A DNA stretch of 64,000 bases from Candidatus Peregrinibacteria bacterium (GCA_003153355.1 PLYH01000003.1:38325-102324), one strand, 5' to 3'; shown: positions 5,289 through 43,152, numbered from the stretch's first letter. Numbers and translations: made by a program. The notes: generated by a model not told the origin, from the sequence alone.

Positions 5289-5339
5289 TGTGATGCTTCC
5301 ATGTTAATATAAGCAAGTCTTTTTTCGGGTATTACACTT

Positions 5340-15991: not shown

Positions 15992-16009
15992 TTCAATCAG
16001 CATAAAACT

Positions 16010-16693
16010 ATGGCAACAGCTACCCTCCTCAAACGCAATTACGCCAAAAGCATCCGTACGTATATGATGCTCATTCTGGTTACGGCTGCCGTCGGTCTTT
16101 ATTACGGCTATACGCAGTACACGAAACTTTCCGCGGCCCAGGACGCTCTTTCGAAAGAACAGAGCCAAATTACGGATCTGCAAAGTACCGAATCACAAGC
16201 CAGCGCTGATTACACGACTTTAAAGCAGGATTTTGATCAAAAATATTCGGGTATTCTGGATTCGCTCCAGGCCGTTTATCCGCTTCAGGAAAATTATACG
16301 GACCTCACCCGTCTTTTTGATCAGTTTTTCCAAACAAACAATACTTCTTATAATCCTGTTTTTCTGAGCGACCTGAAGTTCGGGGAGCCGCGTTATGACG
16401 CGGCTGTGGATTATGCAGTTCTCCCGGTCACCATGACCATCTCCGGCACTGAAGATAATTTCATGAAATTTCTGCAGTTTGTGGAAAACTCCGGCGTTCT
16501 CGCCGATAAAACACGTTTGATGGATGTCCGTTCCATCAGCATTAACTTTACTTCAAATGCTTCAACGGTTTCACAGAACACCATTCCGGGACAGACTCCG
16601 GCAACGGCCACGCAGCCGATGATCAATGTTTCGGTCGGTCTGAACGCTTACTTCCAGAAACCTTTCCTTCAAACTACTCCGAAGACCTCTTAG
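16010..16693 (+). CDS. bitopic membrane protein, possible PilO-like pilus assembly component
   Basis: One N-terminal TM (MMLILVTAAVGLYYGY) followed by a coiled-coil segment. Operon position is immediately upstream of pilB. Confidence 0.35.
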   Translation: MATATLLKRNYAKSIRTYMMLILVTAAVGLYYGYTQYTKLSAAQDALSKEQSQITDLQSTESQASADYTTLKQDFDQKYSGILDSLQAVYPLQENYTDLTRLFDQFFQTNNTSYNPVFLSDLKFGEPRYDAAVDYAVLPVTMTISGTEDNFMKFLQFVENSGVLADKTRLMDVRSISINFTSNASTVSQNTIPGQTPATATQPMINVSVGLNAYFQKPFLQTTPKTS

Positions 16694-16726
16694 TAAACCC
16701 TCAACGGCGCAAGTTCCTCATTTCTT

Positions 16727-17983
16727 ATGGCTGATCAACAGAAATTACAACTCCTTCAAGACGCGATTTTAGCGGGAAATATTCCGCAGCTCGTTTTGAA
16801 CATGATCAGTTATGCTTTGGAACTCCGTGCTTCAGATATTCACGTTGAGCCCGAACAAAATACGATCCGCATCCGCTACCGCGTTGACGGCGTGCTCCGT
16901 CAGATCGTCGAATATCCGCACAATATTCACCCGGCCGTTGTTTCGCGCATTAAGATTATGTCGAACATGAAGATTGATGAACAACGCGTTCCGCAGGACG
17001 GAAGATGTGAAGTAACGACCAAAGACGCACGGGAAATGGATCTGCGCGTTTCAACGCTTCCCACTATTAATGGAGAAAAGATCGTGATGCGTATCCAGGA
17101 CCGCTCAAGAAAAATTCCGGATCTGAGCGAACTCGGCATGCAGGGTAACAGTCTGAAGTTTTTTAAAGAAGCTCTGGAACTGCCGAACGGCATTATTTTA
17201 ACTACCGGTCCAACGGGTTCAGGAAAAACCACCACGATGTATTCGGCACTGGACACTTTGAACCGCATTGAAGTGAACATTCTAACAATTGAAGATCCGG
17301 TGGAAATCCAGATGGACGGTTTGAATCAGAGTCAGGTTCATCCGGACATTGATTATACCTTTGCCAACGGCTTACGTACGGCTTTGCGTCAGGATCCGAA
17401 CATCATCATGGTCGGAGAAATCCGCGACAAGGAAACCATTGATATCGCGATTGAAGCTTCATTGACGGGTCATCTGGTGCTTTCAACCATTCATACGAAC
17501 AGCGCGGTCGAAACCTTAACGCGTATTGATAACATGGGCGTTCAGCCTTTTTTGATGGTTGAGACGATTGAATTGATCATCGCTCAGCGTCTTGTCCGCA
17601 AACTCTGCGACAATTGCAAAATTCCTCAAGACAACGTTCATCCCGACATCATGGCGCTGGTGCAGAAAGCGCTCGAAAATCTTCATTCCACCGATGAAAT
17701 CGGACCGGAAGAGCTCAAGGCCATGAAATTTTATAAAGCCGTGGGCTGTGAACAGTGCGATAAAATCGGTTACCGCGGACGTCTCGGTCTTTATGAAATT
17801 ATGCGCATGAACAATGAAATCCGCAGACTCATCCTTGCCCGCGCTTCTTCCATCGACATTGAAAAAGCCGCACTCAAAAACGGCATGGTCAATCTTGAAC
17901 AGGCCGGAATCATCAAAGCTTTAAAAGGTGAAACGAGTCTGGACGAAGTATACCGCGTCGCAAAACGCATGGAAGAATATTAA
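16727..17983 (+). CDS. pilB: type IV pilus assembly ATPase (GspE/PilB family, short form)
   Basis: Walker A GPTGSGKTTT, Asp box and Walker B (IMVGEIRD), His box (TGHLVLSTIHTN), and the tetracysteine motif CDNC...CEQC typical of GspE/PilB. At 418 aa it lacks the long N-terminal domain. Confidence 0.9.
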   Translation: MADQQKLQLLQDAILAGNIPQLVLNMISYALELRASDIHVEPEQNTIRIRYRVDGVLRQIVEYPHNIHPAVVSRIKIMSNMKIDEQRVPQDGRCEVTTKDAREMDLRVSTLPTINGEKIVMRIQDRSRKIPDLSELGMQGNSLKFFKEALELPNGIILTTGPTGSGKTTTMYSALDTLNRIEVNILTIEDPVEIQMDGLNQSQVHPDIDYTFANGLRTALRQDPNIIMVGEIRDKETIDIAIEASLTGHLVLSTIHTNSAVETLTRIDNMGVQPFLMVETIELIIAQRLVRKLCDNCKIPQDNVHPDIMALVQKALENLHSTDEIGPEELKAMKFYKAVGCEQCDKIGYRGRLGLYEIMRMNNEIRRLILARASSIDIEKAALKNGMVNLEQAGIIKALKGETSLDEVYRVAKRMEEY

Positions 17984-18010
17984 AAATTACGAATTACTAA
18001 TTCAAAGGAT

Positions 18011-19297
18011 ATGCCAGAAAAACAAGCCCAGGGCTTTGGACAAGCAGACAAAGGTCAAACCTTTACCATCAACGGACAGAACGCCGAAGCCGGTTCCGAG
18101 CAGGAAGGTAAACAGATCGTGCTGAATATTGCCCAGACCAGCGGCGGCAAAGTTTTGCTCAGACAAAAAGCCAGCTACGTAAAGTATTCCGGCAATGTTC
18201 TTGTAGATACGTACCGCCGCATAAACGATTTTTTCATTGATCATTCCAGCGTAAAAATCCGCGACAAAGCCACATTTTTCCGTCTGCTGGCCGTGATGAT
18301 TAATTCCGGATTACCTTTGATCAGGTCTTTGCGGACTTTGGCGGTCCAGCAGGCAAAAAGCCCTAAACTTGCGCGCACGCTGTATGAAATGGCCACGGCG
18401 ATCGAAGCCGGAAAAAGCCTTTCAGAAGCCATGTCCGGCTATCCCGAAATTTTCAATGAAGCGCAGGTCGGTATGATCCACGCGGGTGAAGCTTCCGGAC
18501 AATTGAACAAAACCTTACGCGAACTTGCGGAAAGCGTTGAAAAAACAGCAAGTATAACATCAAAAATCCGCGGTGCACTTATTTATCCGGCAGCCATTCT
18601 TGTGCTGCTCGTCATCGTTATTTTTGTGATGATGATTGCGGTTATTCCTCAAATGACCAAACTTTTTGCCCAGACCGGACACGATTTACCTCTGCCGACG
18701 CAAATTCTGATCGCAGTGAGCAATTTCTGTTCCACATACTGGCCGATCGTCCTTTTAGTTTCTACCGCGCTTGTGGTGGGAACCGTTCTCTGGATCCACA
18801 CCCGCACGGGGAAATATATGTGGGATTACATGCTTATTAAACTGCCGATTTTCGGTCAGCTGATTCAAAAAGCCACGCTTTCAAGATTTTCACGCTCGCT
18901 GAGCAGCCTTATGAGCAGCGGCGTTCCTATTATTAAAGCCATCGAAATCACGGCAAATGCCGTAGGCAATGAAGTGTATAAAAGACGCCTGGTTTTAACA
19001 GCAGAAGATATGCGCCGCGGTATTCCGATGGCGGAAAATATGGCTGAAAGTAAACTTTTCCCGACGATGCTCGTAAACATGATCGAAGTCGGCGAACAGA
19101 CCGCCCAGCTGGAAAGCGTCACTTTAAAAGTCGCGGAATTTTACGATGAAGAGGTGGATACGGTCGTAGCAGCCCTGACCAAAGTTATGGAACCCCTTAT
19201 TATAGTTGTCATTGGTATTACGGTAGGCGGGATGGTCGCAGCGATCATGCTTCCGATCATTGAACTTACCAATATTACGGGCGGATTTACTTCATAG
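18011..19297 (+). CDS. pilC: type IV pilus platform protein (GspF/PilC family)
   Basis: Duplicated T2SS-F domains (GEASGQLNKTL... and IEVGEQTAQLESV...) and three hydrophobic TM blocks. Confidence 0.9.
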   Translation: MPEKQAQGFGQADKGQTFTINGQNAEAGSEQEGKQIVLNIAQTSGGKVLLRQKASYVKYSGNVLVDTYRRINDFFIDHSSVKIRDKATFFRLLAVMINSGLPLIRSLRTLAVQQAKSPKLARTLYEMATAIEAGKSLSEAMSGYPEIFNEAQVGMIHAGEASGQLNKTLRELAESVEKTASITSKIRGALIYPAAILVLLVIVIFVMMIAVIPQMTKLFAQTGHDLPLPTQILIAVSNFCSTYWPIVLLVSTALVVGTVLWIHTRTGKYMWDYMLIKLPIFGQLIQKATLSRFSRSLSSLMSSGVPIIKAIEITANAVGNEVYKRRLVLTAEDMRRGIPMAENMAESKLFPTMLVNMIEVGEQTAQLESVTLKVAEFYDEEVDTVVAALTKVMEPLIIVVIGITVGGMVAAIMLPIIELTNITGGFTS

Positions 19298-19311
19298 TTT
19301 CGCTGAGACAC

Positions 19312-19341
19312 TTGATTTTTGAGCCTAAAACATGGTATAGT
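19312..19341 (+). promoter_or_regulatory. putative strong promoter of the pilin gene
   Basis: TTGATT (19312-19317), an 18-nt spacer including TG, then TATAGT (19336-19341). Extended -10 TGGTATAGT. Located in the 100-nt gap after pilC. Confidence 0.5.
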
Positions 19342-19396
19342 ATATGGAAAGAAGAGAAATTTAATTTTACAAATAATAAATATTAACCCAAAAAAA

Positions 19397-19915
19397 ATGA
19401 CAAATCCTCACTCCCTGAAAGGTTTTACCCTCATTGAACTTTTGATCGTTATTACGATCATCGGTATCTTGGCTGTTGCGCTTTTACCATCGGTACTCGG
19501 AGCTCCGGCACGCGCCCGTGATGCTGCACGCAAGGCTGATTTGAATAACATTATTGCGGGACTTGAAACCTACGACAGTGACCACCAAGGTTATCCAGCT
19601 GCTGTTAGCCCAACTGGAGATTGCGTACAGGATATGGCAGGTATTGCAAATTATTTCCAAGGCGGAAAAGCACCGGTTGATCCTCAAGGTAAAGGTCTTA
19701 AAACATGTACAGGAGCACCTTTAACTGGCAGTTATGTTTATTGCCAACTTTCAGGCAATCCGGCAAATTATGTCATTATTGCACAAATGGAAGTTCAGGG
19801 AGATGCGAACAGCACTACTCTTGCAGCACCTTTATCTTGCAGCTCTACTGGAACAGCTCCGGCATTGGTTACTCCAACTTCTGCTGCTCCTTGGTATTAT
19901 ATTTTAACGAAGTAA
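19397..19915 (+). CDS. type IV pilin (prepilin with class III signal peptide)
   Basis: MTNPHSLKG|FTLIELLIVITIIGILA is the canonical G|F(T)LIE cleavage/methylation motif with Glu+5. Cys residues lie in the C-terminal half. The ORF-track start 19319 lies upstream of the predicted promoter. Confidence 0.85.
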   Translation: MTNPHSLKGFTLIELLIVITIIGILAVALLPSVLGAPARARDAARKADLNNIIAGLETYDSDHQGYPAAVSPTGDCVQDMAGIANYFQGGKAPVDPQGKGLKTCTGAPLTGSYVYCQLSGNPANYVIIAQMEVQGDANSTTLAAPLSCSSTGTAPALVTPTSAAPWYYILTK

Positions 19916-19966: not shown

Positions 19967-20275
19967 TCAGTTTTCGAGTTTGGTGATGCGCTGTTCGTGG
20001 TTTTGCAATTTGGTATTTATCGGCTTTAGATAGTCAAAAATTTGACTGAAAAGCTTGTCATGTCCTTCAAGTTTTTCATCAATGTGACTAAAACGCTTTC
20101 TCACTTCCGCCTGAAAAACTGCGGCATCACCGGCAAGCTGGTCGATCATATTTCCGACCTCCAGACTCATTAAAACGAATCGTTCATCGATTTGCTCGAA
20201 GCGCTTGTCGATCATTTTGAATTTCGGATCAAGAGCTTCAACGATTTGCTGGAGATCTTTTTTTGTTAATGTCAT
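19967..20275 (-). CDS. hypothetical coiled-coil protein (102 aa)
   Basis: Clean ORF with heptad-like charged composition. I recognise no family. Confidence 0.45.
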   Translation of the reverse strand: MTLTKKDLQQIVEALDPKFKMIDKRFEQIDERFVLMSLEVGNMIDQLAGDAAVFQAEVRKRFSHIDEKLEGHDKLFSQIFDYLKPINTKLQNHEQRITKLEN

Positions 20276-29600: not shown

Positions 29601-32600
29601 TTGATACGAACGGCCAGTTTATCGGATCACTCGGACTTCATATTGATAACACCAAAAATCTGAAGACAGAAGTTCTGGTCGCCTACGACGGCATGCCCGT
29701 GAACGATCCGAATAAAACTGACGATGATCAATATTTTGTTGATCTTCAAGTCACCAAAAATCAATCCGATCTTACCGCTGCCGACAAAGCGAATCTGGGA
29801 ACCGACAGCAACGGAAATTCTCAGATTTTAAGTCCAGGCGACGCTGCCGGCCTTGCCGGGCTTCAAGGCGGTCCAGCGAAGATCACGCTGCCTCCTGCAA
29901 CCGTTCAGGTGCCCGAACCTTTTGTTTATCTTGATGCCGATCTTGATGTTTCCCATTCGCTCATCACTTCGGAAAAACGCGCAAAAGACGCAACAGAGCC
30001 TTACAATGTTCTGGCCGACAATGATACGGTCCAGTACAGCGTTATATTAAAAAATACTTCATCGCATGATCTGAACAATTTCATGTTCAGCGATATTGCT
30101 CCATCGAACATGACGCTGGACCAGACGACGATGCAATGCAGCGATTGCGGAAAATCAGACAATCTGAAATTTGATGCCACCGGCGAAAGCATGCGTCCTT
30201 ATATCGTTTCAGGATTTTCAATCCCTGCAGGTCAGACCAGAACATTTACCTACAGCGGAGTTGTGGGCAGCACGCCTCGCGTAAAAATCTTTACCGGCAA
30301 AAATCTGACGAAGAGTTTGCCAAGCAATGCGTTGCCGATGATCGGCGCTTCACCGGACAGAAATACCAGCGGACGCATGACCTACTATTATGCGACGTCC
30401 GTTGATCCTGTAACGCAATACGTCAATTACAGTTCCTTCACGACTCCTCCGTCTTCGCCGGCGCCGATCACTCCAGGCAATCCGCAGTTCCCGAATTTCC
30501 CAACCAGCAACGGCGACCTGGGATCAGTAAACAGCGACGGCGTTCCGAACAGCGTTGCCGGGTTTGAACAAGGCTTGATGAATAACGACAGTGACGGCGA
30601 CGGTTTGCCGAATCTTTATGATGATTTGAACGGAGGTTTAAATTCCATCGCAAACGCGACCCAAGGAATTCTTGCAGCATTATCCTGTTCTCAAGGATGT
30701 ATCCCGATGCCGCTTAACTTCGCGTTCCTGGCGCCGGGAGTCATTAATGCGCTTGGCATTCCTGTGGGTTTTGATCCCGGAACACCCATTTTCTGCTGGG
30801 GCGTACCTCCGCTGCTCTTTATCGGCGCGGGACCGATTTGTTACGGCTCATTAGCCGGAAGACTTTATCTGTCACCAACTTTAACGGCGAGTCTTGGCAT
30901 GGGAATCTGTCTCGGTCCATATCTGGCCGGACAATGTTTTGCCTTTAAATTACCGATCGACATGATTCCGTCAGGAATATGCGATGCCATCCAGTCGGGC
31001 ATTGATAATGCGATGTCATCTGCCAGCAGTGCCATTAATTCAGCCGGCAATTCAGGCATGATTCAAAGCGGCCAAAGCGCGGATTCAACCGGGCGAAGTA
31101 CCACAGGAGGCATGTCCGGCAGCACCAATTTAGGTAATTATTCTTACAGTGCAAGCGTGGGAACGAACTTTAGGATACCCAGCTTCCCCGCGGTTATTAC
31201 GAAGTGGCTTGAAGATCAGTCCAGTGAAATCGTGAATAAACTCACCGATCTTCCTGATTTCTATTTCATTTATCCGGATGTGAATTCAATCGCCGGAGCT
31301 TTTGTACCTCAAAAAGGCGCCAACCAGGGCGGCGGACAACCTCAGGCCGGTGTCCTGCAGTCACTGAATCCTACCGGACCAAGTCAGGGCGGCAATCAGG
31401 TTCCGAGTTTCAGTTCAAATCCGCTCGCGAGTGACCCGGCCAAGAGCGTCTTCAGAACCGTGCTCTCATCTCCGAGTAAAATTTTGAGTTATCTGAACAG
31501 CATTCCGCTCATTCAAATTCAGTCGCAGGAAGTGGCCATTAAGATTCCTGCTTTAACCGCGGCGGAAATCGCCAAACTGAAAGCTGATGCGCAGCAGTGG
31601 GTTGAAGATGAACGCAATGAAGTGAACCGCGCACTGCAGGTATGGAGTTGCGGTTATGAGCAGCTTGATCAAAACTGGACGCCTCAAAAATCCGGAACAA
31701 ACGGAACTCCAGGCGCTTCGGCTTCTCCATATCAAACGATGTGCGACAAACTGATCGTGGATATGAGCGCGCTTCGCAACAGCGTTGAAAAAAATCTTGA
31801 TGCTTTGCAAAAATATCTGGAACTTCCGCGCAAGATTCTGGCATGGAAAAATATCGCCGCGAAATATTTGTACCAGATCATCTGTTATCTGGATACAATC
31901 ATGCAGTACACCGGCGGTTATATCAAAAAACAAACCGTGCGCGTGCTGACGTGGATCGGCATGATCAAGAAAATCCGGCAGCTGCTGGAAACCTGGAAGC
32001 TGATCATCAGTCTTATCGTGGATTATCAGGCATCGTGTGACCGCTGCAGTTCATCGCGCTTTACGTTGCTTCAGCTGATTTTGCAGCTGTTTGCCGCCAT
32101 ACCGTCGCCGCCGATCATACCGTTCCCCAAACTGCCGGATATTTATCTGGACGTTTCTCAAATTCAAATCGGTCTGCATATTTTGTGGCCTGACATCAAA
32201 TTTATTCCGGAACGGATTCTGCTTCCAAAGATTCCGCGGATCACTTTGCCGGATCTTCCGACGCTTACGTTGCATCTGCCGGCAATTCCGATTCTTCCAG
32301 ATCCGCCTAATCTGCCGGAACTTCCTGATCTTCCGCCGTTACCGCTTCCGACCCTGCCGGATATTCCTCCTGCGCCCGCTGTTCCCGGACTTCCGGATCA
32401 AATCAAAGCGGTGATCGAAATTTTGAAAACTATCATTAAAATTATTTGTCTGATCCGCAAAGGTTTGATTCCGATTCCGGAATTGAATCTTAAATCTCAG
32501 ATTGAACAGCTAACCGAGCGTCCGCTTACTCCGCTTATTCCGCTGGATCTTGCGGCAATGCTGCAAATTCCGCCGATCAAATATCAGTACGTCGACCATA

Positions 32601-35600
32601 TAGAAATCAAAGCGATTTTAAATCTGCAGCTGGATTTCAGTCCTGTTTACGACTTTGTTCAGGGCATCGCCAACGTGTGGAACAATCTTTCGACGGATCT
32701 TGTGGAGAAACTGAACAAGTCGCTGCAAGATGCCGCTGCCGCTGCAAGTTCGGTCACTTCCGCTGCTACGGCGGGCGGAAATGCCGTGACCGGAGGCGGA
32801 GGAAATATTAACGTCGGAGGCAAATCCAGTGCAGTAATGCAATTACTCGCCCAGGTTCAATCGGCACAAACACAAGCAGGTCAAACGACCATCAGCCAGG
32901 ATGAAATTACCAAACTGTTCGCCGATAATTCACAGGCGCTTGTTGATGTGGCAAGCCTGGACGTTAACAAAGTTCCTCCGGCAAACCTCAACAAAATGCT
33001 CGCGGATCTTGAGAAGAACGATCCGATGCTCGGACATTATTTAGCCGAGTATCAACAGGCCGGAAAAGATCTTCAAAAGACCGTGGCCCAGTATGCCCAG
33101 CAAAATACGACGATTCAAAAAGATATTCATTTGGCCGCAACACAGCGTTATTTGAGCAAAGATGATCCTCTGCTCAACCAGCCGATCGACCAGATCAAGG
33201 CACGCATTTCGACTGAAGATAAACCTGAATATGACGGCCAGAAACAAGTTGCCCAGCTGCGCGATGCACTCATCGCATACACCGACGACAGCAGCCATCT
33301 GATGGATCAATTGGGAAATACTTCCGATCTGAATCAGACCGTAAGCATTCTCGCCCAGGCTCACAGTCTCAATGATTATCTGCCTCAGCCGGGACAGGAC
33401 AACAGCGGACCATTTTATGCTTCAGCTGCACAGAGTGATACAGCTGCGAACACTCCGGCTGTTGCAATGGCGAGTCTCGTGAACGATACGTTCCAGTCTT
33501 TTGCTGACGGCGTGAAGAAAGATTTAAATGATGAGCTGCCTTTGCTTGCTGATTCAGGTTTGCCTCCGGTTCCAACGACACCTGGTTCAAACGGACTTAC
33601 CGAACAGCCGAAAGGCATTTATATCTACAATGCTGATCTGGGCGTCAACGAGCGCCTGATTGAATACACTGACGAGGCCGATAGTCCGTCTCAACTTTTA
33701 TTCATGGATGTTTATAACAACGGCGTACAGGATGCCATCTACAGTTTTGGCGGAAATATTTACATGAAAGAAAACTATAACGCTCCGCGTACGAAAGTTT
33801 ATTACGGCGGAGTTCCGCAAACAAAAAATCTCATCGACTTAATTCCGGCAGCGCCGTCAGTGAACAGCTTCGTTTCAAATTATGTTAATAACAAGAGCGT
33901 TGATCTGAGCTGGAAAGCTCCGACCCAAAGCGATGTTTCCGGATACCAGATTATTTACAAACTGATGCCGGATGCTTTTGTGGAGAACATCAGTCCGATC
34001 ACTCACAAAATTGCCGTGATCGTTCAAGCAGCGGCTGCCACAGCAACACCTGCAACAGTTGTCGTGAACCAGGGAACGTATATGCTTGACGGCCAGAGTC
34101 CTCCAGATAACAAAGCGCCGTCGGGATCTTCCATTAATACGCAGGCAGGCAGTCAGATCACTCTTGATTACGGAGCTTCAGGAAAAATTACCGTTCCTGA
34201 AAATACGACTGTAAAAATTCCGGATATCACTTCTCCATATAACACTGCGCAAGACGTCAACGGAGATTTGTACTTTGACGGCACCAAGCGCACGATTGTT
34301 GTTCCAAACGCCAGCGGATTCAGCGTAACTCCAGGTGAAATCATTCACACCCTTAATCCTGCCAAGTTTACACTCAACGTGGCGGGTACTGCACAAGGGG
34401 AATACGATCTGCCGGTGAACACAGAATTTACCATTCCGACAGATATTCAAGATGCCATAAGCGTTTCTGTTTCTGACGGCGACATTGAAGTGATCGATCC
34501 TCAAACCATCGTCCAGCATCAAAAACTCATGAGCGGCCTGATGCTTGATTTTGATACGCCGATTACATCCGAAGGTGGCAGCGCGCGCGTCATGTTCGGC
34601 GACGGATCTTACGATTATATTGCCCAGGGCGAAGATCTGATGCTCAAGAAACTTGATACGCCGGATAAACCACAAGTTCATCTGGATATCACCAACGGTT
34701 TCTATTATGCGAAAATTCAATCGTTCGACCACCTGGGTTCATTAAGCACAAGCTCGGAAATGCAGCTGCTGGCTCCGTCGATCTGCGCCGATAAAGAACC
34801 GCCACTTCCGAACGGCGGACCTTCAGACCGCACAACGTACATCTTCAAGGCTCTGACGATCGATGCTTCAAAATCTTTTGATACCAACGGCAAAATTATT
34901 TCCTACTACATTGATACTGATCCGACCACAGACAGCGATCACGACGGCGATCCGACGGATGATAAGAATGTGTGCCACGACGCCGATGTAAACACCGACA
35001 CCGACGGTGACGGGATTCCGAACAATGATTGCAGCGATCCGGTCTTTAAACTCGGTCCGTATCAGGATCTTAATGACCGCAAAGTAGTGCTCAACGTGGT
35101 TGATGAATCTTTGAACCGGTCCCAGCAGCCGATCACCATTCATGTGGTGGTTCCGGGAATTTCACTTGATCAGGATGCCGCAACTTCAGGTGTGGCATCG
35201 GGCAATCTTGATGTCCAGGAAAGCGATATTCCGGTCGGCCTGATCCGTGACCGAGGCGGTGTTCTTACTCCGATTGCGACGAAGAGCGCCAATGACAAAG
35301 GCAAATATTTCACCGACGATCAGGGGAAATTTAAAGTCGGCGATATGAATTTGACCGACACGATCGTGATTAAAAACAGCAAAGGCGACATCATCGGTGA
35401 AATCGATCCGAAAACCGGCCGCATCATTTTGAAAGATCCTAATTACGAAATCGATGTTCTTCCGGCTGAAGCGCCGCTGCTGCCGACACGCGTAGTGGTC
35501 AAACAAAAGAGCGACGGAACAATTATTACCGCTCTCTTCCTGGTTCCGGATGTTAATACTGATACGACCATTGATGATCCAAACTTACCGTACAACAAAA

Positions 35601-37467: not shown

Positions 37468-38085
37468 ATGAAAAAGCTGATCCCACAATTCAAATTTAAG
37501 CCTCTCACCATGACGGTGATCCTGGCTATGGTGCTGTTTTTCGGAAACTCGCTCCGTCCGACCGAGGCTCAGGTTGCCGCACCTCCGGTTCCATATCCTG
37601 TTGCTCCGGCGGTTGGCGATACAACCGCAGCAAACAACGCCTGCGCTCCGGCAATGGCTGATTTTTCATCAAAACTGCTTGCTGATTTCCGGACATTTTT
37701 GGATACGAATTTCCAGAATAAAGCATCCACCTCGTCGTTGCTTGGAGTTGCCATGGCCAAATACACCCAGATGCGCGATCAACTCTATACGGCCTGGGGC
37801 CAATACTTTCCGAATCAGGGCGTTCCACTCGCCACCAGCGGCGTTCAGCCGGGACAATGTTTACAGATTGTGAACCAGACTCTTTCCGATGCCCAGATTC
37901 TTTTAAGAGACCACGCAGTTCGGACTTCGGGTGTGAAAAAATCCACGGCGCTGCTGGAAAAATATCAGCAGATTAACGCCGAGCTCGCCAATTTATACCA
38001 ACAGTTTGTTTATATGCAGGGATATTTGAATAGTTTTTCCAATAAACTGCCCTGCTACGTCAAAAAGAATTGCGTCAAAGGTTAA
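37468..38085 (+). CDS. secreted protein of unknown family (205 aa), cassette gene 1
   Basis: Signal peptide (TMTVILAMVLFFG...TEA|Q), helical Q/L-rich body, C-terminal CYVKKNC. Confidence 0.7.
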   Translation: MKKLIPQFKFKPLTMTVILAMVLFFGNSLRPTEAQVAAPPVPYPVAPAVGDTTAANNACAPAMADFSSKLLADFRTFLDTNFQNKASTSSLLGVAMAKYTQMRDQLYTAWGQYFPNQGVPLATSGVQPGQCLQIVNQTLSDAQILLRDHAVRTSGVKKSTALLEKYQQINAELANLYQQFVYMQGYLNSFSNKLPCYVKKNCVKG

Positions 38086-38086
38086 T

Positions 38087-38929
38087 ATGAAAAAATATCT
38101 TCCTACAATCAGTCTGTTTGTTCTGGGAATACTCCTCGTCTCGATGAGTGCGATGGTGTTTACCTCTAAAGCACAACAAGCGAATCTGAAAAACCCCTAT
38201 GATTCAGGAACTTTAGGCGTGGACGATATTATCGATACCTATAACAACAACATCAACAAGGCGTTCAACAACTACATCAAACTGATGATGACGAATATGC
38301 AGACGAATCCCGATGATCCGAACGGCAAGCCTTTTCATGCCGACGGAACTCCATTCAGTGTTTCCGACTGCTTTAACAGTCCTCAGAACTACAGCACGTT
38401 TTGCGTGGCCGCTAATTTGCTGGGAGGCAATTCGGATGATTGCCCAGCTGTAACGAAGGATAAAACGACTCCGCTTTCCGAAGGCATGGACGCCTTCTGC
38501 CAACTCGGCGGTAATGCTCTGCCTTTGCAGGGATATATGAATTTCATCGCGGCTTTAAAAAAGCGCACACAAAATATTTTCGATACGCAGGCTGATCAGC
38601 AGTGCTTTATTTCAAAGGTTCCGGTCGCCGGTCCGGTTGTCGGAAAATCTTTGTGTTCCACATCAGCATTTTTTGGTTCAATTCCTCTCATCAATCAAAT
38701 CGTAAAAAGAAAAACCGATATCAATCAGGCCATGGATACTGCAAAAAAAGCTCTGGACCAGACTCTTTCCGCGTATGATCAATTGAAAATCGCATGGCCC
38801 ATTCATTTGAAGTACATAAAAATTTATGCCGATCTGGAAAAATACCGCGACAAGATTGTGGACATCCGCCACCAGACGGACATCTTCCCGAAGAAATTTA
38901 TCGATCTTACCACCACGGCCTGCACCTAA
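38087..38929 (+). CDS. secreted Cys-rich protein of unknown family (280 aa), cassette gene 2
   Basis: Signal peptide (ISLFVLGILLVSMSAMVFTSKA|Q), 8 Cys in the mature part, ends ...TTTACT. The start is 2 nt after the previous stop. Confidence 0.7.
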   Translation: MKKYLPTISLFVLGILLVSMSAMVFTSKAQQANLKNPYDSGTLGVDDIIDTYNNNINKAFNNYIKLMMTNMQTNPDDPNGKPFHADGTPFSVSDCFNSPQNYSTFCVAANLLGGNSDDCPAVTKDKTTPLSEGMDAFCQLGGNALPLQGYMNFIAALKKRTQNIFDTQADQQCFISKVPVAGPVVGKSLCSTSAFFGSIPLINQIVKRKTDINQAMDTAKKALDQTLSAYDQLKIAWPIHLKYIKIYADLEKYRDKIVDIRHQTDIFPKKFIDLTTTACT

Positions 38930-38933
38930 ACCT

Positions 38934-40775
38934 ATGATGAAAAAATTTCTCTACACGATAGGCTTTCTGATGTTTTCCTCTGCACTGTTCAGTCCACTGA
39001 TCAGCGGTACGGCTTTGGGCCAAAGTACGGGAAATGCCGGGAAGGGTGTCGTTGATAATTCCACCTGGGTTGCACCGGCCCTCCAGCTTAATATTCCCGA
39101 TAAAGACTGGTCGGCAACTTTCGGTGAAACCGATCCGACACAGGTCGGGCAGGATCTTTATACAATGGTTTACAACAAAATGAACGTTGCTCCGTCTCAA
39201 AAGGCTTTTAAAGACACGACCGGCGCTTATGGAGCGACGCAGTCTGACATGGTGCGGCTTCTGAATAATGATTTTAGTCCGATTCTGGCCAAAAGTCCTT
39301 ATCTGACCCAGGCTCAGGCCATCAAAAAAATGCAGGAAATTCAGCAGCACTATCAGCAGGACATGGCTGTGCAGTCCGTTCAGGCCGATATTGATGCCGA
39401 AGTCACTCCCAATGAAATTTTCGAGAACGGCGATACGTCCGATTCGGGTTTTGATCTGATTAACGATCTCAATAATATTGAAAATATTCTTTTCAAAAAA
39501 ATGGACCCGATCGATGTCGGCGGGAATTTCAACGGCAGCTCCAGCGGCGGCAGCGGAACAACCGGCGGCGGTGCGAACAATTCAAGCACAAACGGCCCGG
39601 CCTCGACCTCTTCCGGATCTACGTCTGGCGGCGGCACCACCACCGGTTCAACATCAAGTCCTCTGACCGGGAGCGGAAGTCAGCAAGTGACCGGCACTCA
39701 ACCCGGTGGAACTCAGGAAGTTTCAACTTCCGGAATAGGACCCGCACCAAGTGCAGCCGATAATCCAAATATCTGTTTCGGCAACCAGCAGCTTAATCAA
39801 GCTCTTGATGCTTTTAACACTCAGCAGTCTTCTGATCCCCGTTTTAAAGAAACGCCGACGGTAACTCCGCCAGCGCCGGCGCCTGCGCCTGCACCGGCAC
39901 CATCGCCGTCACCATCACCAAGTCCGGGTCCATCACCGTCACCGACTCCTTCACCAAGTCCGAGTCCGACGCCACAACCTGCTCCTACTCCGCCTCCTCC
40001 ATTTACCTATAATCCCCCATCTACTCCGGCGGTTCAACCGGCCCCTGCAGCCAACTGGCTGCAAGCGCCTCCTTGCGGCCAGGTCATGTGCATACAGGTA
40101 AATTTTGTTATGACAACCGCTTCGGCCTACACCGATTCGGACAACTGCATCGCCTGCCATATTGAAAAAATCAACGAAAAACTCAAAGCGACCATTAACC
40201 ACAGTCTGATTCCCGGCAAAGCAACGGGAAATCTGATCGAACCCGGAATCTGTAAATCAGCTACCGCAGATCTGATCGGATCACTGAATATGCGTTTCTT
40301 TGCGATTTCCAAACCTGTAAAAACGCCGATCAACGATGATCTCATTTACGGCACCAACACCGTCGATGAATGGAATAAATTCCTCACGACCTATAAACCT
40401 TTCCCTTTTTACTCGATGAATGTTCCTGATCCAAAGAACAAAACCCAGGATACATTCATTCCAACGGTTCCGGACAGTGCGGCGAAAGCGGCCGTTATGT
40501 ATTCAACTCCTGACACCACTCTTGGACAAATCAGTGCCGGCATCCAACAGCAGATTACGGCTACGGCGAATCATGTCGCACAGGCGGCCACGGTTTATGA
40601 CGCTTCGATCAAAACGGATTCCGACAGCAGTTTCCTCCAGTCCATCCAGAAGGAACTTGACCAAATGAACTACTACTTTGACAGTTTCCAGAATATTCTC
40701 GCAAGCATTAACTCGACCTCCAGCGATAACCCCGGAGCCTGCCAAACCCTTGCCACTAAAAATGATTGCTCATAA
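38934..40775 (+). CDS. secreted protein of unknown family with G/S/T-rich and Pro-rich linkers (613 aa from ATG 38934), cassette gene 3
   Basis: MMKKFLYTIGFLMFSSALFSPLISGTALG|Q signal peptide begins at 38934. The ORF-track start 38826 overlaps the previous gene and encodes an R/T-rich non-signal stretch. C-terminal ACQTLATKNDCS. Confidence 0.7.
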   Translation: MMKKFLYTIGFLMFSSALFSPLISGTALGQSTGNAGKGVVDNSTWVAPALQLNIPDKDWSATFGETDPTQVGQDLYTMVYNKMNVAPSQKAFKDTTGAYGATQSDMVRLLNNDFSPILAKSPYLTQAQAIKKMQEIQQHYQQDMAVQSVQADIDAEVTPNEIFENGDTSDSGFDLINDLNNIENILFKKMDPIDVGGNFNGSSSGGSGTTGGGANNSSTNGPASTSSGSTSGGGTTTGSTSSPLTGSGSQQVTGTQPGGTQEVSTSGIGPAPSAADNPNICFGNQQLNQALDAFNTQQSSDPRFKETPTVTPPAPAPAPAPAPSPSPSPSPGPSPSPTPSPSPSPTPQPAPTPPPPFTYNPPSTPAVQPAPAANWLQAPPCGQVMCIQVNFVMTTASAYTDSDNCIACHIEKINEKLKATINHSLIPGKATGNLIEPGICKSATADLIGSLNMRFFAISKPVKTPINDDLIYGTNTVDEWNKFLTTYKPFPFYSMNVPDPKNKTQDTFIPTVPDSAAKAAVMYSTPDTTLGQISAGIQQQITATANHVAQAATVYDASIKTDSDSSFLQSIQKELDQMNYYFDSFQNILASINSTSSDNPGACQTLATKNDCS

Positions 40776-40778
40776 TAT

Positions 40779-41861
40779 ATGAAACACTTACGAAACCTTA
40801 CAATTGGGATGATGATTGCGGTCATGACAGTGACCCAGGTAGCTTTTGCCCAAACCGGAGATGCTTCCGGCAACGGCGGCGCAGTCGTTTGCCGCAACGG
40901 CGCCAGAGATTATGGCACTTTCCTTTCCTCGGTCATCAGCTACAACGGCTTTACCGAGTACTGGAAAGACATTATCGTCCGCTATAATCACAATATGTGT
41001 CTGTTTCTGGACATTGATAATCTTCTGAACCGGATTGATAAAACGCGTCAGCAGATCCGCAATGCCTTTTATACCTGCGACGCCAGCGCTCCGAAACTGC
41101 GTACTTTATATTATCAGCTTGAGGCCGAGCTTTTCTTTTTGCGCGATTATGTGGATTTTGATGATGACGGCAACATTATTTTCAAATCGCAAAACGTTAT
41201 CACGTCGGATTTCACCGATTACACCGTCAGTAAGATGAATTTCTTTTCCCCGGCAGATGCGCAAACTCTTTTGCAGACGCTCTTTGGCAAATATAACGCA
41301 AAAAAGGATGCGTACTTGAATTGCGCTGATCCGACGTGGGGCAATTTGATCCAGAAATGGAATGAGTTCAAGTCATCACTTGGCGGATTCACCGCGATTC
41401 AAGATGCCGCCGAAACGATCAGTAAACGCTGGGACGATGCGGTCAATACGCCTTTCAAGCGCACAGGAGGTTTGTTCGGAGGATTGCTCGATACCAAAAT
41501 CAACGGGCTTGATCCTGCAACGGCCTGGGGCGACATTTCCGCTGAACTCCAGAGAAATGCCATTTCTACGGTCCCGGTTTCTTCGGGTCAGATTGCAGCA
41601 GCAACTCAACAGGGCACATTAGGTTTTTCTTACGATAAATTTTTGCAAACTGCGGCTTCAGACGCCAGTCTTCATGATCAGGAACTTGAACGCACCCAAT
41701 TTTTAGCTCAGTACGGTCAAACTTACCAGCAAAGCTCCGCCAATATCGCACAAGCGATCATCGACAAAGTGAATGCCCTTGATACATCAATCCAGGCTAC
41801 TTTCCCATTAATTACTCAAACTTCCCAATGCGCCAAAACTGTTAACGGCAGGGTTTGCTAG
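40779..41861 (+). CDS. secreted protein of unknown family (360 aa), cassette gene 4
   Basis: Signal peptide (LTIGMMIAVMTVTQVAFA|Q), helical body, C-terminal QCAKTVNGRVC. The start is 3 nt after the previous stop. Confidence 0.7.
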   Translation: MKHLRNLTIGMMIAVMTVTQVAFAQTGDASGNGGAVVCRNGARDYGTFLSSVISYNGFTEYWKDIIVRYNHNMCLFLDIDNLLNRIDKTRQQIRNAFYTCDASAPKLRTLYYQLEAELFFLRDYVDFDDDGNIIFKSQNVITSDFTDYTVSKMNFFSPADAQTLLQTLFGKYNAKKDAYLNCADPTWGNLIQKWNEFKSSLGGFTAIQDAAETISKRWDDAVNTPFKRTGGLFGGLLDTKINGLDPATAWGDISAELQRNAISTVPVSSGQIAAATQQGTLGFSYDKFLQTAASDASLHDQELERTQFLAQYGQTYQQSSANIAQAIIDKVNALDTSIQATFPLITQTSQCAKTVNGRVC

Positions 41862-41920: not shown

Positions 41921-42003
41921 TGCTTTTCTAGGGCCATAGGTGAGGTTTCTTCTGGAGCATTGATGTATAGCTCCATAGTTCCGCAATCGGAACGGCTGAA
42001 TCA

Positions 42004-42195
42004 TCAGCGGAGAACGAATGAGAAGATGGTTCCTTTGGTTCGTTCTTTTAATTGAGTCTTCTCTTTATTGTTAATGGAAACATGAGACCTTCCTTCCATT
42101 ATTTCAATAATCTCGGCGTTCGAAGTCCGGCAGTACATGCAGTTCGGACGTCTGCTGGAGATTGAGATACCGCAATTTGTGCAGTTAAATATCAT
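42004..42195 (-). CDS. small zinc-ribbon protein (63 aa)
   Basis: CxxC-x10-CxxC (CTNCGISISSRRPNCMYC) near the N-terminus. The start is 9 nt downstream of the HTH gene on the same strand. A competing 66-aa ORF on the + strand has no features. Confidence 0.4.
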   Translation of the reverse strand: MIFNCTNCGISISSRRPNCMYCRTSNAEIIEIMEGRSHVSINNKEKTQLKERTKGTIFSFVLR

Positions 42196-42204
42196 GTGAG
42201 ATTG

Positions 42205-42669: not shown

Positions 42670-42838
42670 TTCTTTAAACTTTAAATAAGGTTTTTTTGAT
42701 TTTTTATACCTTATCTAAGTTTAGCATATTTTCAAACAACGAACAATGATGTATACCTCTGTTTATTTATTTTTATCTATCGGGAATGTTATATCATAAA
42801 AAAGAACACTTTTCAATAATTCTAGCAACTTCATTTTA

Positions 42839-42858
42839 TTCTATTAAATTCTATTAAA
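42839..42858. repeat. tandem direct repeat 2 x TTCTATTAAA
   Basis: Read directly from the sequence, within the AT-rich spacer 42670-43100. Confidence 0.9.
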
Positions 42859-42917
42859 CTTTATCTAAACATGTTTTAAACATTGCTAAATTCTCTATTT
42901 TATTATACTTTATTAAA

Positions 42918-42937
42918 TTTTAGGCAATTTTAGGCAA
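42918..42937. repeat. tandem direct repeat 2 x TTTTAGGCAA
   Basis: Read directly from the sequence. A related ATTTAGGCAAAAA occurs at 60103-60115 next to another predicted promoter. Confidence 0.9.
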
Positions 42938-43135: not shown

Positions 43136-43152
43136 ATAAAATCGACGATTAC

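Follow-up and report, generated by a model that had tools for sequence, protein, structure and literature searches.

The core of a giant protein encoded by a Candidatus Peregrinibacteria bacterium is an unassigned, genuinely unusual module without a described relative. It is encoded by nucleotides 30668 to 32590 of the window, by which we mean the whole stretch of 64,000 nucleotides that was analyzed, and had been singled out in an earlier note made from the sequence alone. The interpretation given there is supported for an unassigned module that lacks classical transmembrane (TM) character and contains a Leu-Pro zipper, and it is not supported for a fusion-loop-type module 1. We read the core as the extracellular, probably disulfide-stabilized central hub, composed of two domains, of a pilus-linked surface apparatus, and we give this reading as a whole slightly less than an even chance. 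Its structural part is fairly well supported, while the function is one that we infer.

Architecture of the giant protein

The core corresponds to aa 3354 to 3994 of the giant protein, in frame with its open reading frame (ORF) (Table 1), and the odd composition reported for it is real, comprising a charge-poor Cys/Gly/Pro module and a Leu-Pro tract with a period of 3. The N terminus of the protein reads as a Sec-type signal peptide, ordinary in kind and without a prepilin leader and N-methylation motif, and no LPXTG motif is found at the C terminus. SLH modules at approximately aa 1620 to 1850 and 5165 to 5345, TSP3 repeats, Big/Invasin domains, FG-GAP repeats, and C-terminal IPT/TIG domains form an architecture that is common to 113 full-length homologues, with SLH, TSP3, FG-GAP, and TIG domains flanking the core on either side. 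By the SLH criterion, the protein belongs with the SLH-anchored cell surface proteins (PF00395 match at aa 1627 to 1668, E value of 1.4e-15; weaker SLH match near aa 5240). The C-terminal SLH module is present in 100 of the 113 full-length homologues. An N-proximal block of SLH and TSP3 was detected in 67 of the 113, many of these matches mapping to the C-terminal module, so that a true N-proximal copy is rarer than this figure. An arrangement with the core at an apex between two SLH anchors was rejected as not general on these counts.

Besides the signal peptide and an Ala/Thr/Val stretch at aa 4468 to 4486, hydrophobic peaks occur in the protein only within the core. The earlier note knew of no described domain of such composition, and library searches bear this out. 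The core had no significant profile match in Pfam (to an E value of 10), NCBIfam, or PHROGs and no match to PDB sequences by profile, and Foldseek searches with a model of the whole core found no match in the PDB (best E value, 2.8) or BFVD (best E value, 0.04; TM score below 0.12). No known pore, fusion, or anchor module, which the note had allowed for, was matched in the libraries or by Foldseek: fold similarity to fusion proteins (classes I to III and fusexins) was absent from the PDB and BFVD searches, and no fold or sequence similarity to pore-forming toxins (ClyA/Xax-type alpha-PFT and beta-PFT) was seen. The names of public homologues (for example, "TIGR01451 family repeat protein" and "fimbrial isopeptide formation D2") cover the flanking domains only.

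Table 1. Features of the giant gene, its core, and its neighborhood (window coordinates)
Feature	Coordinates	Strand	Details
Type IV pilus-like genes upstream	14333..19915	+	PilN-like (weak match), 227-aa membrane protein, T2SSE ATPase, T2SSF/PilC, prepilin
Prepilin gene	19319-19915	+	Only gene among those with prepilin leader and N-methylation motif
Giant ORF, 5609 aa	20609..37438	+	Single ORF
Module 1 (aa 3360-3458), charge-poor, Cys/Gly/Pro-rich predicted beta domain	30686..30982	+	AF2, composition, Cys invariance
Ser/Gly/Thr-rich linker (aa 3459-3519)	30983..31165	+	pLDDT 26-40, low column conservation
Conserved segment (aa 3520-3562)	31166..31294	+	NxRIPGFPS...W..Q..E...K..DLPDxYxIYPD motif block, one helix; pLDDT 66-75
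Indel-rich variable loop (aa 3563-3617)	31295..31459	+	Gap fraction to 0.9, pLDDT <50
Helical part of module 2 (aa 3622-3813)	31472..32047	+	AF2 pLDDT 80-89
Hydrophobic helix and Pro cluster (aa 3817-3843)	32057..32137	+	Kyte-Doolittle peak 1.58
Amphipathic beta hairpin (aa 3844-3869)	32138..32215	+	AF2 strands 517-542, pLDDT 71-81
Leu-Pro tract (aa 3870-3928)	32216..32392	+	Spacing statistics, conservation, covariation
Amphipathic helix (aa 3929-3952)	32393..32464	+	Conserved Lys stripe, invariant Cys3947, hydrophobic moment 0.47
C-terminal part of module 2 (aa 3953-4043)	32465..32737	+	AF2 pLDDT 73-86 for strand and helix
Four secreted-protein genes downstream	37468..41861	+	205 aa, 280 aa, ~611 aa (Met at 38940), 360 aa

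Conservation and distribution of the core

A profile search with the core retrieved 505 protein clusters at E values below 1e-3 and 322 at E values below 1e-30, with E values reaching 1e-268. Nearly all of these clusters lie within proteins of 3500 to 6000 aa, the proteins come almost entirely from Peregrinibacteria, Peribacteria, and Gracilibacteria, and a genome scan found a relative encoded in 134 GTDB species genomes. Counts of the distribution were taken from an exhaustive HMM search and the genome scan; a word-indexed protein search, with the whole core or with a profile free of the Pro tract, returned three fragments each, and its index seems to miss giant proteins.

The core therefore defines a family, and the refuting condition set in the earlier note, lack of conservation in homologous giant proteins, clearly fails, as it is the best-conserved part of the protein, especially in aa 3801 to 4000. 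Identity within the core is 30 to 80% across a bacterial class, core positions 481 to 700 are free of gaps in 46 sequences, and there are invariant Cys, Pro, Trp, and Asp positions. Eight Cys are invariant beyond the Cys3681/Cys3712 pair described below, and the modal Cys count of the core is odd (11); these residues could also bind metal instead of forming disulfides. Conservation at this level suits a lipid-directed module, as in viral fusion peptides, as well as it suits an internal hub. No viral relatives of the core were found in IMG/VR, and a phage origin was rejected on this result and the lack of a PHROG match.

Module 1, a charge-poor, predicted beta domain

The sequence quoted for module 1 in the earlier note is present, with seven Cys in aa 3354 to 3467 (Cys 3360, 3364, 3396, 3411, 3434, 3443, and 3458) and not the eight counted there. 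A check of their conservation found Cys 3360, 3364, 3434, 3443, and 3458 (C9, C13, C83, C92, and C107 of the construct) to be invariant in the family. Residues 3360 to 3458 are 56% hydrophobic, 28% Gly plus Pro, 11% aromatic, and 4% charged, a composition that would also suit contact with lipid. Nowhere else in the protein do 99-aa segments with five or fewer charged residues occur (42 starts, aa 3330 to 3393), the median segment of this length having 18, and across 178 homologues the medians for module 1 are 4% charged residues, 14% Pro, and 14% Gly. Aromatic positions are conserved at F46 and Y93 and in the motifs FGWG and WPPSPYQ.

Modeled alone (nucleotides 30662 to 31009) by AF2 with 62 homologues, module 1 gave a confident prediction (pLDDT, 81.2; pTM, 0.66) of a compact domain, mostly strands with two short helices. 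Covariation within the module was about twice the expectation (23 pairs versus about 11), while pairs joining modules 1 and 2 were not enriched (61 versus 84 expected). An autonomous compact beta-rich domain with a predicted new fold is fairly well supported by these data, and its model had no fold neighbor in the PDB by Foldseek (best E value, 1.1). The characterization of module 1 as "re-entrant or fusion-loop-type" is not supported, given the compact model and the failure of Foldseek to find any fusion protein or pore. An internal sortase-like signal, in which YLSPTLT precedes a hydrophobic stretch and a Lys, was also rejected, since it has no Gly at position 5 and lies in the middle of the chain; the segment is also predicted to form beta strands with invariant Cys.

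Between the modules, the linker at aa 3459 to 3519 is predicted to be disordered. The conserved segment that follows has invariant F199, W206, E213, K217, and P229 (core numbering), and the variable loop carries a Gln/Gly/Pro-rich insertion that is specific to close relatives of the giant protein.

Module 2 and the Leu-Pro tract

The helical part of module 2 is modeled as a strand (aa 3635 to 3648) and three helices (aa 3651 to 3678, 3709 to 3737, and 3739 to 3811). Heptad periodicity runs throughout aa 3622 to 3813, with a period of 3.50 that is coherent over core positions 382 to 484; a TGG at aa 3768 to 3770 is conserved, and an SCDxC at aa 3809 to 3813 is invariant. Cys3681 and Cys3712 (core C354 and C385) occur together, as both were present in 149 of 178 sequences and both absent in 23, with 6 discordant (phi, 0.87), and this covariation suggests a disulfide and hence an extracytoplasmic location. 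Helix 412 to 484 is continuous in the AF2 model, whereas covarying pairs with i + j of approximately 888 indicate a hairpin at the TGG or an antiparallel dimer, and the two disagree.

The helix at aa 3817 to 3843 has low AF2 confidence and covaries with helix C and the Pro tract. In the beta hairpin, D517, D521, G528, and P534 (core numbering) are invariant and the periodicity is approximately 2.25; it covaries with strand 308 to 321 (6 pairs versus 0.9 expected) and strand 670 to 682 (4 versus 0.9). C-terminal to the amphipathic helix, a Pro-rich loop is followed by a strand (aa 3997 to 4009) and a helix (aa 4011 to 4043). Since this strand and helix are modeled and covary with the hairpin and strand 308 to 321, the conserved unit appears to extend about 150 nucleotides past the end given in the earlier note.

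The Leu-Pro tract itself has a Pro at every third residue with Leu or Ile one position ahead. There are 29 Pro in aa 3830 to 3932, the Pro-Pro spacing of 3 occurs 17 times versus 7.7 expected (z, 4.5; 0 of 2000 shuffles), and [ILV]P dipeptides number 20 versus 10.4 expected (0 of 2000 shuffles). The Pro columns are at least 90% conserved, the hydrophobic period is 2.95 to 3.0, and the tract lies inside the most conserved 200 aa of the protein. AF2 models it as neither helix nor strand, yet with a pLDDT of approximately 76, and a polyproline-II (PPII) conformation is presumed. Covariation, noisy with only about 157 effective sequences, placed 6 to 7 of the 15 strongest pairs between the tract and the helices, where about 1 was expected; the top helix-tract pairs are 399-548, 452-547, 405-568, 403-548, 425-580, and 440-586 (core numbering), and helix A and the tract share 11 pairs versus 4.2 expected. 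Contacts between the helices and the tract are the probable basis of this signal. The hydrophobic and amphipathic helices reported to flank the tract are present, and the description of a Leu-Pro zipper between amphipathic helices fits the period, the conserved Pro columns, and the helix-tract covariation.

The AF2 model of the whole core was of moderate quality (mean pLDDT, 63.5; pTM, 0.40). The coherent 3.5-residue periodicity had first suggested an alpha/PPII hairpin stalk, 15 nm long and hydrophobic at its tip. It was dropped because the helix-tract pairs form a parallel series, the helix folds back at the TGG, and the hairpin pairs with strands 308 to 321 and 670 to 682, patterns that favor a compact domain over a stalk. 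Module 2 is fairly well supported as an alpha/beta domain with the tract probably lying against heptad-patterned helices.

Location relative to the membrane

The earlier note described module 1 as unlike a classical TM helix, and a Hessa-scale scan covering all core elements of 178 homologues agrees: median insertion free energies ranged from +5.8 to +21 kcal/mol, with a minimum of +1.3 kcal/mol, and no 19-aa segment had a value of 0 or below. Summed by hand on the same scale, aa 3817 to 3843 gave approximately +7.5 kcal/mol (family median, +9.1) and aa 3929 to 3952 approximately +7.7 kcal/mol (family median, +7.4; minimum, 1.6). A cytoplasmic loop would be net positive and free of disulfides; the median net charge across the 178 homologues is -3 for the Pro tract and -2 for the hairpin, and the adjacent helices carry the covarying Cys pair. 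These features of the sequence support a core located outside the cytoplasm and without a classical TM helix.

Gene neighborhood

The giant gene lies between type IV pilus-like genes and four genes for secreted proteins, all on the same strand (Table 1). In 14 of the 20 standard-code loci with visible upstream DNA, PilC and/or pilin genes immediately precede the giant gene on the same strand, and all four downstream genes follow the giant gene in the same order in 53 to 59 of 80 related loci. The synteny of PilC, pilin, giant gene, and four secreted proteins holds across divergent genomes; it is not proof of a physical association with the pilus. Each of the four downstream proteins ends in a Cys or a Cys-x6-9-Cys loop, a feature common to all four accessory families, and the modal Cys count of the 280-aa family is odd (3). 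They belong to no known family, PHROGs included, and their N termini are ordinary and signal peptide-like, without a prepilin leader; a Pfam scan of 88 accessory-protein homologues likewise gave no consistent family. Homology of the accessory proteins to the core was rejected, with hhalign probabilities below 1%. The 205-aa and 280-aa families have a weak link to each other (hhalign, 46%), the sole such link among the accessory proteins.

Discussion

The data presented here are consistent with a core that is the family-defining center of a giant Sec-exported, SLH-anchored surface protein of ultra-small candidate phyla radiation (CPR) bacteria of the Peregrinibacteria/Gracilibacteria class. It would lie outside the cytoplasm without spanning the membrane, its two domains folding independently of each other on either side of a disordered Ser/Gly linker. 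Of these, domain 1 (about 100 aa) would be a compact beta-rich fold with almost no charged residues and five invariant Cys. In domain 2 (about 420 to 520 aa), of alpha/beta type, heptad-patterned helices would be bundled, with the period-3 Leu-Pro tract, conserved in length and position and presumably in PPII conformation, strapped along them like a zipper, and the beta hairpin would join strands from earlier and later in the chain. On this reading, the hydrophobicity of the core serves intramolecular packing, and it may serve protein-protein docking as well. We propose the core as the assembly hub of a type IV pilus-linked surface apparatus, at which the giant protein would oligomerize and/or bind the four coencoded secreted Cys-tail proteins, with the greasy domain 1 buried in the hub complex.

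The core may instead be the working end of a device that acts on the host membrane, an explanation that we consider unlikely. Pilus retraction would draw the host close, and the beta domain would insert together with the hydrophobic helix, hairpin, and amphipathic helix, the result being anchoring, permeabilization, or fusion; a switch of the long helix from hairpin to extended form at the conserved TGG might assist. Module 1 could suit such a role through its exceptional and conserved lack of charge and high hydrophobicity; however, it is modeled as a closed compact domain and not as a loop. A broad hydrophobic face on the amphipathic helix and the amphipathic character of the beta hairpin would also fit, but the hydrophobic elements of module 2 covary within the domain and so look core forming, and no segment has TM-like hydrophobicity. 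High conservation is typical of lipid-directed fusion peptides, and the disagreement between the continuous AF2 helix and the covarying fold-back is compatible with two conformations; nevertheless, the core has no structural likeness to a fusion protein or pore-forming toxin in the PDB or BFVD, no relatives in viral contigs, and a position in the middle of the chain instead of at a free end. Linkage of the gene to type IV pilus genes also fits, and passages of two reports infer a host-dependent or predatory life for the lineage and propose giant surface proteins for host contact (PMC8080830, PMC4736985). A wider version, in which the core, the four Cys-tail proteins, and the type IV pilus genes constitute an unrecognized CPR surface machine whose membrane-active, switchable center engages the host membrane after pilus contact, seems to us somewhat less probable again.

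Slightly below this in probability is the idea that module 1 binds a glycan or cell wall (in the wall or capsule of a host or in the envelope of the cell itself) and that module 2 is a structural spacer. A small autonomous domain with a flexible linker in an adhesin-like protein would suit this role, and the aromatic, Gly/Pro-rich, and charge-poor composition, the five invariant Cys, and the conserved aromatic positions count in its favor; module 1 would then resemble small Cys-rich carbohydrate-binding modules (CBMs). Its aliphatic content, however, is far above that of known CBMs, and the searches turned up no CBM, hevein, or lectin with a similar sequence or fold. Binders of host glycans usually evolve fast, whereas module 1 is conserved across the whole class, and the even stronger conservation of module 2 would be left unexplained.

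It is improbable that the core anchors the protein by its middle, in or on the cell's own cytoplasmic membrane, as a hairpin or monotopically, with the Pro tract as a wall-spanning rod. The candidate segments (aa 3394 to 3412, 3817 to 3837, and 3931 to 3952) coincide with the hydrophobic peaks noted above and Arg and Lys flank the two helices; yet predicted insertion free energies are above zero throughout the 178 homologues, the putative TM helices contain conserved Lys, Glu, and Gln and several Pro, and the connecting loop carries a net negative charge. An outside location is indicated by the covarying Cys pair and by the extracellular-type domains that flank the region, and the conserved SLH anchor follows about 1100 aa later in the chain than the core. 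Gram-positive surface proteins are known to have Pro-rich segments that span the wall, and the tract has a weak NCBIfam match to one surface protein region (see below), but its length and sequence are fixed and it seems to pack on helices, in contrast to wall spacers. Low-complexity drift or an artifactual ORF, by which the core would be a compositionally biased linker without specific function, has next to no probability, and drift is refuted: the composition is biased and aa 3459 to 3519 and 3563 to 3617 are really variable and predicted to be disordered, but the E values, the identity across a bacterial class, the ungapped and invariant positions, the rank of the core as the most conserved part of the protein, and the confident AF2 model of module 1 all speak against it.

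Large or giant extracellular proteins have been reported in Peribacteria, Vampirococcus (Absconditabacteria), and Gracilibacteria; passages of these reports describe proteins of thousands of residues with a signal peptide and integrin/FG-GAP, DUF11, PKD/Ig, and S-layer-type domains, and propose a role in cell attachment (PMC4736985, PMC8080830, PMC6851277). On this description, they are of the same lineage and the same kind as the protein studied here. The passages retrieved by keyword from the three reports are generic and make no mention of a central domain, a Pro tract, four accessory genes, or a pilus linkage (PMC4736985, PMC8080830, PMC6851277). A large part of bacterial diversity belongs to the CPR (Patescibacteria), whose means of attaching to hosts and exploiting them are poorly understood; no cultured model of Peregrinibacteria or Gracilibacteria came up in the part of the literature searched. 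This work adds a domain pair that is conserved across a bacterial class and has no known sequence or fold relative, and a conserved cluster of pilus ATPase, PilC, pilin, giant protein, and four secreted proteins. It also yields testable predictions: the disulfide pattern, the helix-PPII packing, the hairpin versus extended helix, and the docking of the accessory proteins. Were the core an assembly hub or host contact element, it would provide a molecular handle on episymbiosis in Peregrinibacteria and Gracilibacteria, and the range of known structures would gain a new fold as well as a long, conserved zipper of PPII on helix. A membrane-active core would represent a new class of bacterial membrane insertion or fusion device with a new fold, and even a merely structural body domain would be a useful family marker for annotation.

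The Leu-Pro tract calls to mind several known systems. In the stalk of antigen I/II (SpaP/SspB) of oral streptococci, an alpha-helical A region pairs with a PPII P region. Like the giant protein, antigen I/II is an adhesin-like surface protein of monoderm bacteria in which a heptad helix is followed later in the chain by a tract with Pro at every third position. However, there is no sequence, Pfam, or NCBIfam relation to the core and no Foldseek match, and the giant protein is without the A repeats, V domain, P repeats, isopeptide C-domains, and LPXTG of antigen I/II. Antigen I/II forms a 50-nm two-stranded rod from tandem repeats, whereas the core tract is a single nonrepeated, strongly conserved unit that appears to wrap a folded-back helical bundle including a beta sheet. 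The same packing principle is seen in the PP fold, in which Pro at positions i, i+3, and i+6 of a PPII helix interdigitate with the hydrophobic face of an alpha-helix; that fold is a 36-residue hormone without homology to the core, in which the tract has about 60 residues within a domain of more than 400. The only library match of the tract was NCBIfam NF038253, the XPZ region of the group B streptococcal beta C protein (Bac), at an E value of 0.048, far below the cutoff. Both are in surface proteins and have Pro at every third position, but XPZ alternates charged residues, whereas in the core tract the partners are Leu or Ile and every column is conserved; the match is compositional and not evidence of homology.

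For module 1, the nearest comparison is with fungal hydrophobins and bacterial chaplins, which are soluble only by burying or assembling their hydrophobic surface. These are likewise secreted, Cys containing, very hydrophobic, and no longer than about 100 aa, although no sequence or fold match to module 1 was found. Hydrophobins have eight Cys in the pattern C-CC-C-C-CC-C, whereas module 1 has C-x3-4-C ... C-x8-C ... C, with no CC pairs, and is embedded in a giant protein.

Composition and setting of the core

The region at 30668-32590 is in frame with an uninterrupted open reading frame (20609-37438, forward strand; 5,609 aa), the giant protein, of which it forms aa 3354-3994. An earlier note had described this core as a Cys/Gly/Pro-rich module (module 1) followed by a Leu-Pro tract (within module 2), and that description is accurate; module 1 is indeed Cys-rich, with a count of 7 rather than 8, and the region itself stands, with the conserved unit extending to about nt 32737 instead of ending at 32590. 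Residues 3360-3458 are 56% hydrophobic, 28% Gly plus Pro, and 4% charged, and module 1 lies within the sole region of the giant protein with five or fewer charged residues per 99-aa window (median window, 18). Module 1 has a median of 4% charged residues across 178 homologues, and since this lack of charge is conserved, it is a selected property. A compact, charge-poor module 1 must bury its surface, the candidates being a protein interface or lipid. One homologue subgroup has an additional insert, PIPYPPP(L/I)GNC, ahead of the third invariant Cys of module 1, and another has a C-x4-5-C-Y mini-loop in place of a WPPSPYQ motif; both are lineage-specific variants of the charge-free module 1. In aa 3830-3932, a Pro-Pro spacing of 3 occurs 17 times (7.7 expected; reached by 0 of 2,000 shuffles), and [ILV]P dipeptides are doubled (20 versus 10.4 expected).

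The N terminus of the giant protein, in which basic residues are followed by [19 protein letters not shown] and then VNA-AP, reads as a putative Sec signal peptide, and a Pfam scan finds domains of extracellular type flanking the core on either side. Across 113 full-length homologues, the N-terminal domain is conserved; an SLH and TSP3 block, present in some, comes next, then Big domains, FG-GAP repeats, a DUF11-like domain, module 1, and module 2, followed by about 1,000 aa of further domains and, close to the C terminus, an SLH module (100/113). In the protein studied here, SLH modules occur twice, at about aa 1620-1850 and about aa 5165-5345 (window, about 25450-26150 and 36100-36650). The C-terminal one is nearly universal among the full-length homologues; the N-proximal SLH and TSP3 block, detected in 67/113 with many matches mapping to the C-terminal module, looks like an insertion. 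The N-terminal domain (aa 40-330; window 20609-21500), kept in 106/113 at about 40 to 46% identity, is without a Pfam match, and a motif of the [11 protein letters not shown] type within it may resemble gingipain/C25-like folds. The C-terminal tail (about aa 5500-5609; window 37100-37435) contains a CNVCPCP motif; only about 54 of 151 homologues retain this tail, and aa 5401-5500, just before it, are aligned in very few.

Features of the core, the giant protein, and the neighbouring genes
Feature	Position	Details	Source
Module 1	aa 3360-3458 (30686-30982)	Short strands	Whole-core AlphaFold2
Disordered stretches	Core 124-199, 236-292		Whole-core AlphaFold2
Well-predicted helices	Core 324-351, 382-410, 412-484	pLDDT 80-89	Whole-core AlphaFold2
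β hairpin	Core 517-542		Whole-core AlphaFold2
Pro tract		Non-helix, non-strand; pLDDT ~76	Whole-core AlphaFold2
Amphipathic helix	Core 603-623		Whole-core AlphaFold2
Last strand and helix of core	C-terminal to core 603-623 helix		Whole-core AlphaFold2
SLH domain	aa 1627-1668		Pfam
Second SLH domain	Near aa 5240	Weaker match	Pfam
Bacterial TSP3 repeats	Near aa 1900	n = 4	Pfam
Big/Invasin domains	aa 2166-2388		Pfam
FG-GAP repeats	aa 2863-2935		Pfam
IPT/TIG domains	Near C terminus of giant protein		Pfam
Type IV pilus-like set	14333-19915, directly upstream of giant gene	Weak PilN-like, 227-aa membrane protein, T2SSE ATPase, PilC, prepilin	
Four consecutive signal-peptide protein genes (accessory genes)	37468-41861, downstream of giant gene	205 aa, 280 aa, ~611 aa, 360 aa	

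Known relatives and conservation

The core matched nothing in Pfam (up to an E value of 10), NCBIfam, or PHROGs, and its profile matched nothing below an E value of 0.03 among PDB sequences. Foldseek found no fold neighbour of the whole-core model in the PDB (best E value, 2.8) or BFVD (best E value, 0.04; TM score, <0.12), nor of the module 1 model in the PDB (best E value, 1.1; TM score up to 0.31), and the claim that the core corresponds to no described domain holds across these resources. Full-length homologues take their public names from flanking domains only. The nearest known principle is the packing of an α-helix against a PPII helix, seen in the stalk of antigen I/II and in the pancreatic-polypeptide fold; family membership is excluded because neither sequence nor fold searches gave a match and the domains that would define it are lacking. 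These lineages have been described as encoding "large extracellular" or "giant" proteins that carry integrin, DUF11, and S-layer domains (PMC4736985, PMC8080830, PMC6851277), and we found no description of this core in the accessible text of the literature on their giant surface proteins. Giant CPR surface proteins are an already known kind; what is new here is the conserved core together with a conserved accessory gene set.

A word-indexed protein search returned only three fragments, all from Patescibacteria, with 34 to 43% identity over the whole core. When the core profile was scored against 1.84 billion representative proteins, 505 clusters were matched at an E value of ≤1e-3 and 322 at ≤1e-30, nearly all of proteins of 3,500 to 6,000 aa with the core at about 55 to 65% of their length. 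When a single genome was scanned for each GTDB species, relatives turned up in 134 genomes, UGA-recoded Gracilibacteria among them; the 80 loci kept are labelled almost without exception Peregrinibacteria, Peribacteria, Gracilibacteria, or "Patescibacteria group," the closest being on a Peregrinibacteria chromosome (78% identity), and no relative was found in IMG/VR viral contigs. On the ENA contig L001 (1.8x coverage), which carries P0001, the homologous giant gene is broken into many short called genes, probably by sequencing frameshifts, and therefore fragment-sized database "homologues" can be pieces of giant genes.

Core positions 481-700 are gap-free in a 46-sequence alignment and include invariant residues of Cys, Pro, Trp, Asp, and Gly. 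In a comparison with 151 homologues, the most conserved 200 residues of the giant protein are aa 3801-4000 (Pro tract and amphipathic helix), with 49% and 43% identity per 100-aa bin and alignment in about 148 of the 151. The proposition that the core is not conserved in homologous giant proteins decisively fails on the 505 clusters and on this stretch, and drift is refuted by family-wide conservation of the profile, the alignment, and the invariant positions.

Predicted location, structure, and covariation

All core elements of 178 homologues were scanned in 19-residue windows with the Hessa biological hydrophobicity scale, and no window in any element reached 0 kcal/mol (minimum, +1.3; medians, +5.8 to +21); these positive insertion free energies throughout bear out the view that the sequence is unlike a classical TM helix. 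Conserved stripes of Lys, Glu, and Gln run along the candidate "TM" helices, which also contain several Pro residues, and the elements between these helices have a net negative charge. A check of Cys conservation, suggested in the earlier note, found that Cys354 and Cys385 (core numbering; aa 3681 and 3712) tend to be present or absent together (both in 149, neither in 23, discordant in 6; phi, 0.87) and that eight further core Cys residues are invariant. Judged from sequence, this pattern is best explained by disulfides, so that the core would be extracytoplasmic.

The AlphaFold2 model of the whole core (717 aa, 27 homologues) is moderate (mean pLDDT, 63.5). Modelled alone with 62 trimmed homologues, module 1 is confidently predicted as a compact, β-rich domain (pLDDT, 81.2; pTM, 0.66), in place of the re-entrant or fusion-loop-type sequence once suggested. 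The helices have an alignment-averaged hydrophobicity period of 3.50, against 2.95 to 3.0 for the Pro tract and about 2.25 for the hairpin. Mean-field direct-coupling analysis of 178 cores (about 157 effective sequences) recovered Cys354-Cys385, the positive control, at rank 8, and 6 to 7 of the top 15 covarying pairs join a helix to the Pro tract (about 1 expected). Pairs also exceed expectation for helix A with the Pro tract (11 versus 4.2), helices B and C with i+j of ~888 (9 versus 3.5), strand 308-321 with the hairpin (6 versus 0.9) and with the last helix (5 versus 1.1), and the hairpin with strand 670-682 (4 versus 0.9). Module 1 has 23 internal pairs (about 11 expected), and pairs between modules 1 and 2 are not enriched (61 versus 84 expected). 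We read module 1 as an independent domain tethered by a flexible linker and module 2 as one integrated α/β domain with the Leu-Pro tract strapped onto its helices; the Leu-Pro zipper between amphipathic helices proposed previously fits the period-3 tract and the helix-tract covariation. AlphaFold2 draws core 412-484 (window 31823-32041) as one continuous 73-residue helix, with which the covarying pairs 436-452 and 419-470 (i+j, ~888) conflict; such pairs imply either that the chain folds back on itself at the conserved TGG or that an antiparallel dimer forms. Over 103 residues of the helical region, the heptad phase stays coherent.

Genomic context and interpretation

PilC and/or pilin lie directly upstream of the giant gene in 14 of the 20 standard-code loci with upstream DNA visible, and all four accessory genes follow it 3', in conserved order, in 53 to 59 of 80 related loci. 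The accessory proteins belong to no Pfam, NCBIfam, or PHROG family; a C-terminal Cys is present in all four, and in three of them it closes a Lys-rich Cys-x6-9-Cys loop. By sequence comparison, the 205-aa family and the 280-aa family could be distant paralogues (hhalign, 46%); an odd Cys count (3) is typical of the latter.

There is good support for the core being two new domains, extracellular and stabilised by Cys residues, that define a family of giant surface proteins in CPR bacteria of the Gracilibacteria class, and for its hydrophobicity being largely structural. The unusual core noted earlier is confirmed, and its interpretation holds up in part, as undescribed and non-TM, the fusion-loop-type reading of module 1 finding no support. 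A module active on host membranes would suit the composition of the core, but its domains look closed, its hydrophobic elements are packed internally, and no fold similarity to membrane-active proteins was seen in the PDB or BFVD; this reading is unlikely. That module 1 binds glycans is more doubtful still, and an anchor in the cell's own membrane is poorly supported. The favoured reading of the role is that the two domains would serve for assembly or docking, as the hub of a surface apparatus linked to the pilus and including the four accessory proteins. The functional role of the core is now precisely testable.

Many genomes keep their PilC and pilin genes in synteny with the giant gene. In the window, the PilN-like protein has a long Ser/Thr/Ala-rich tail, and PilM, PilD, and PilT were not identified among the ORFs scanned. 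The 690-bp gap between the pilin and giant genes holds, on the opposite strand, a 102-aa coiled-coil-like ORF (19967-20275, reverse) with only weak DUF1664/EzrA-like matches; this ORF may lie at the border between two transcription units. The window as a whole contains no tRNA gene, and large reverse-strand ORFs at 2199-5288, 55543-57705, and 43626-44903 (1,029, 720, and 425 aa) are without a Pfam match at E values up to 1e-5. GC content falls to 0.37 at 42000-44000 (about 0.47 elsewhere); 42205-42669 (reverse) encodes a 154-aa HTH_17 (excisionase/MerR-like) protein whose long tail is acidic/Lys-rich, and the small ORFs of this region have no assigned function. A further surface-type protein of 806 aa, with four DUF11 repeats, is encoded at 61573-63993 (reverse).
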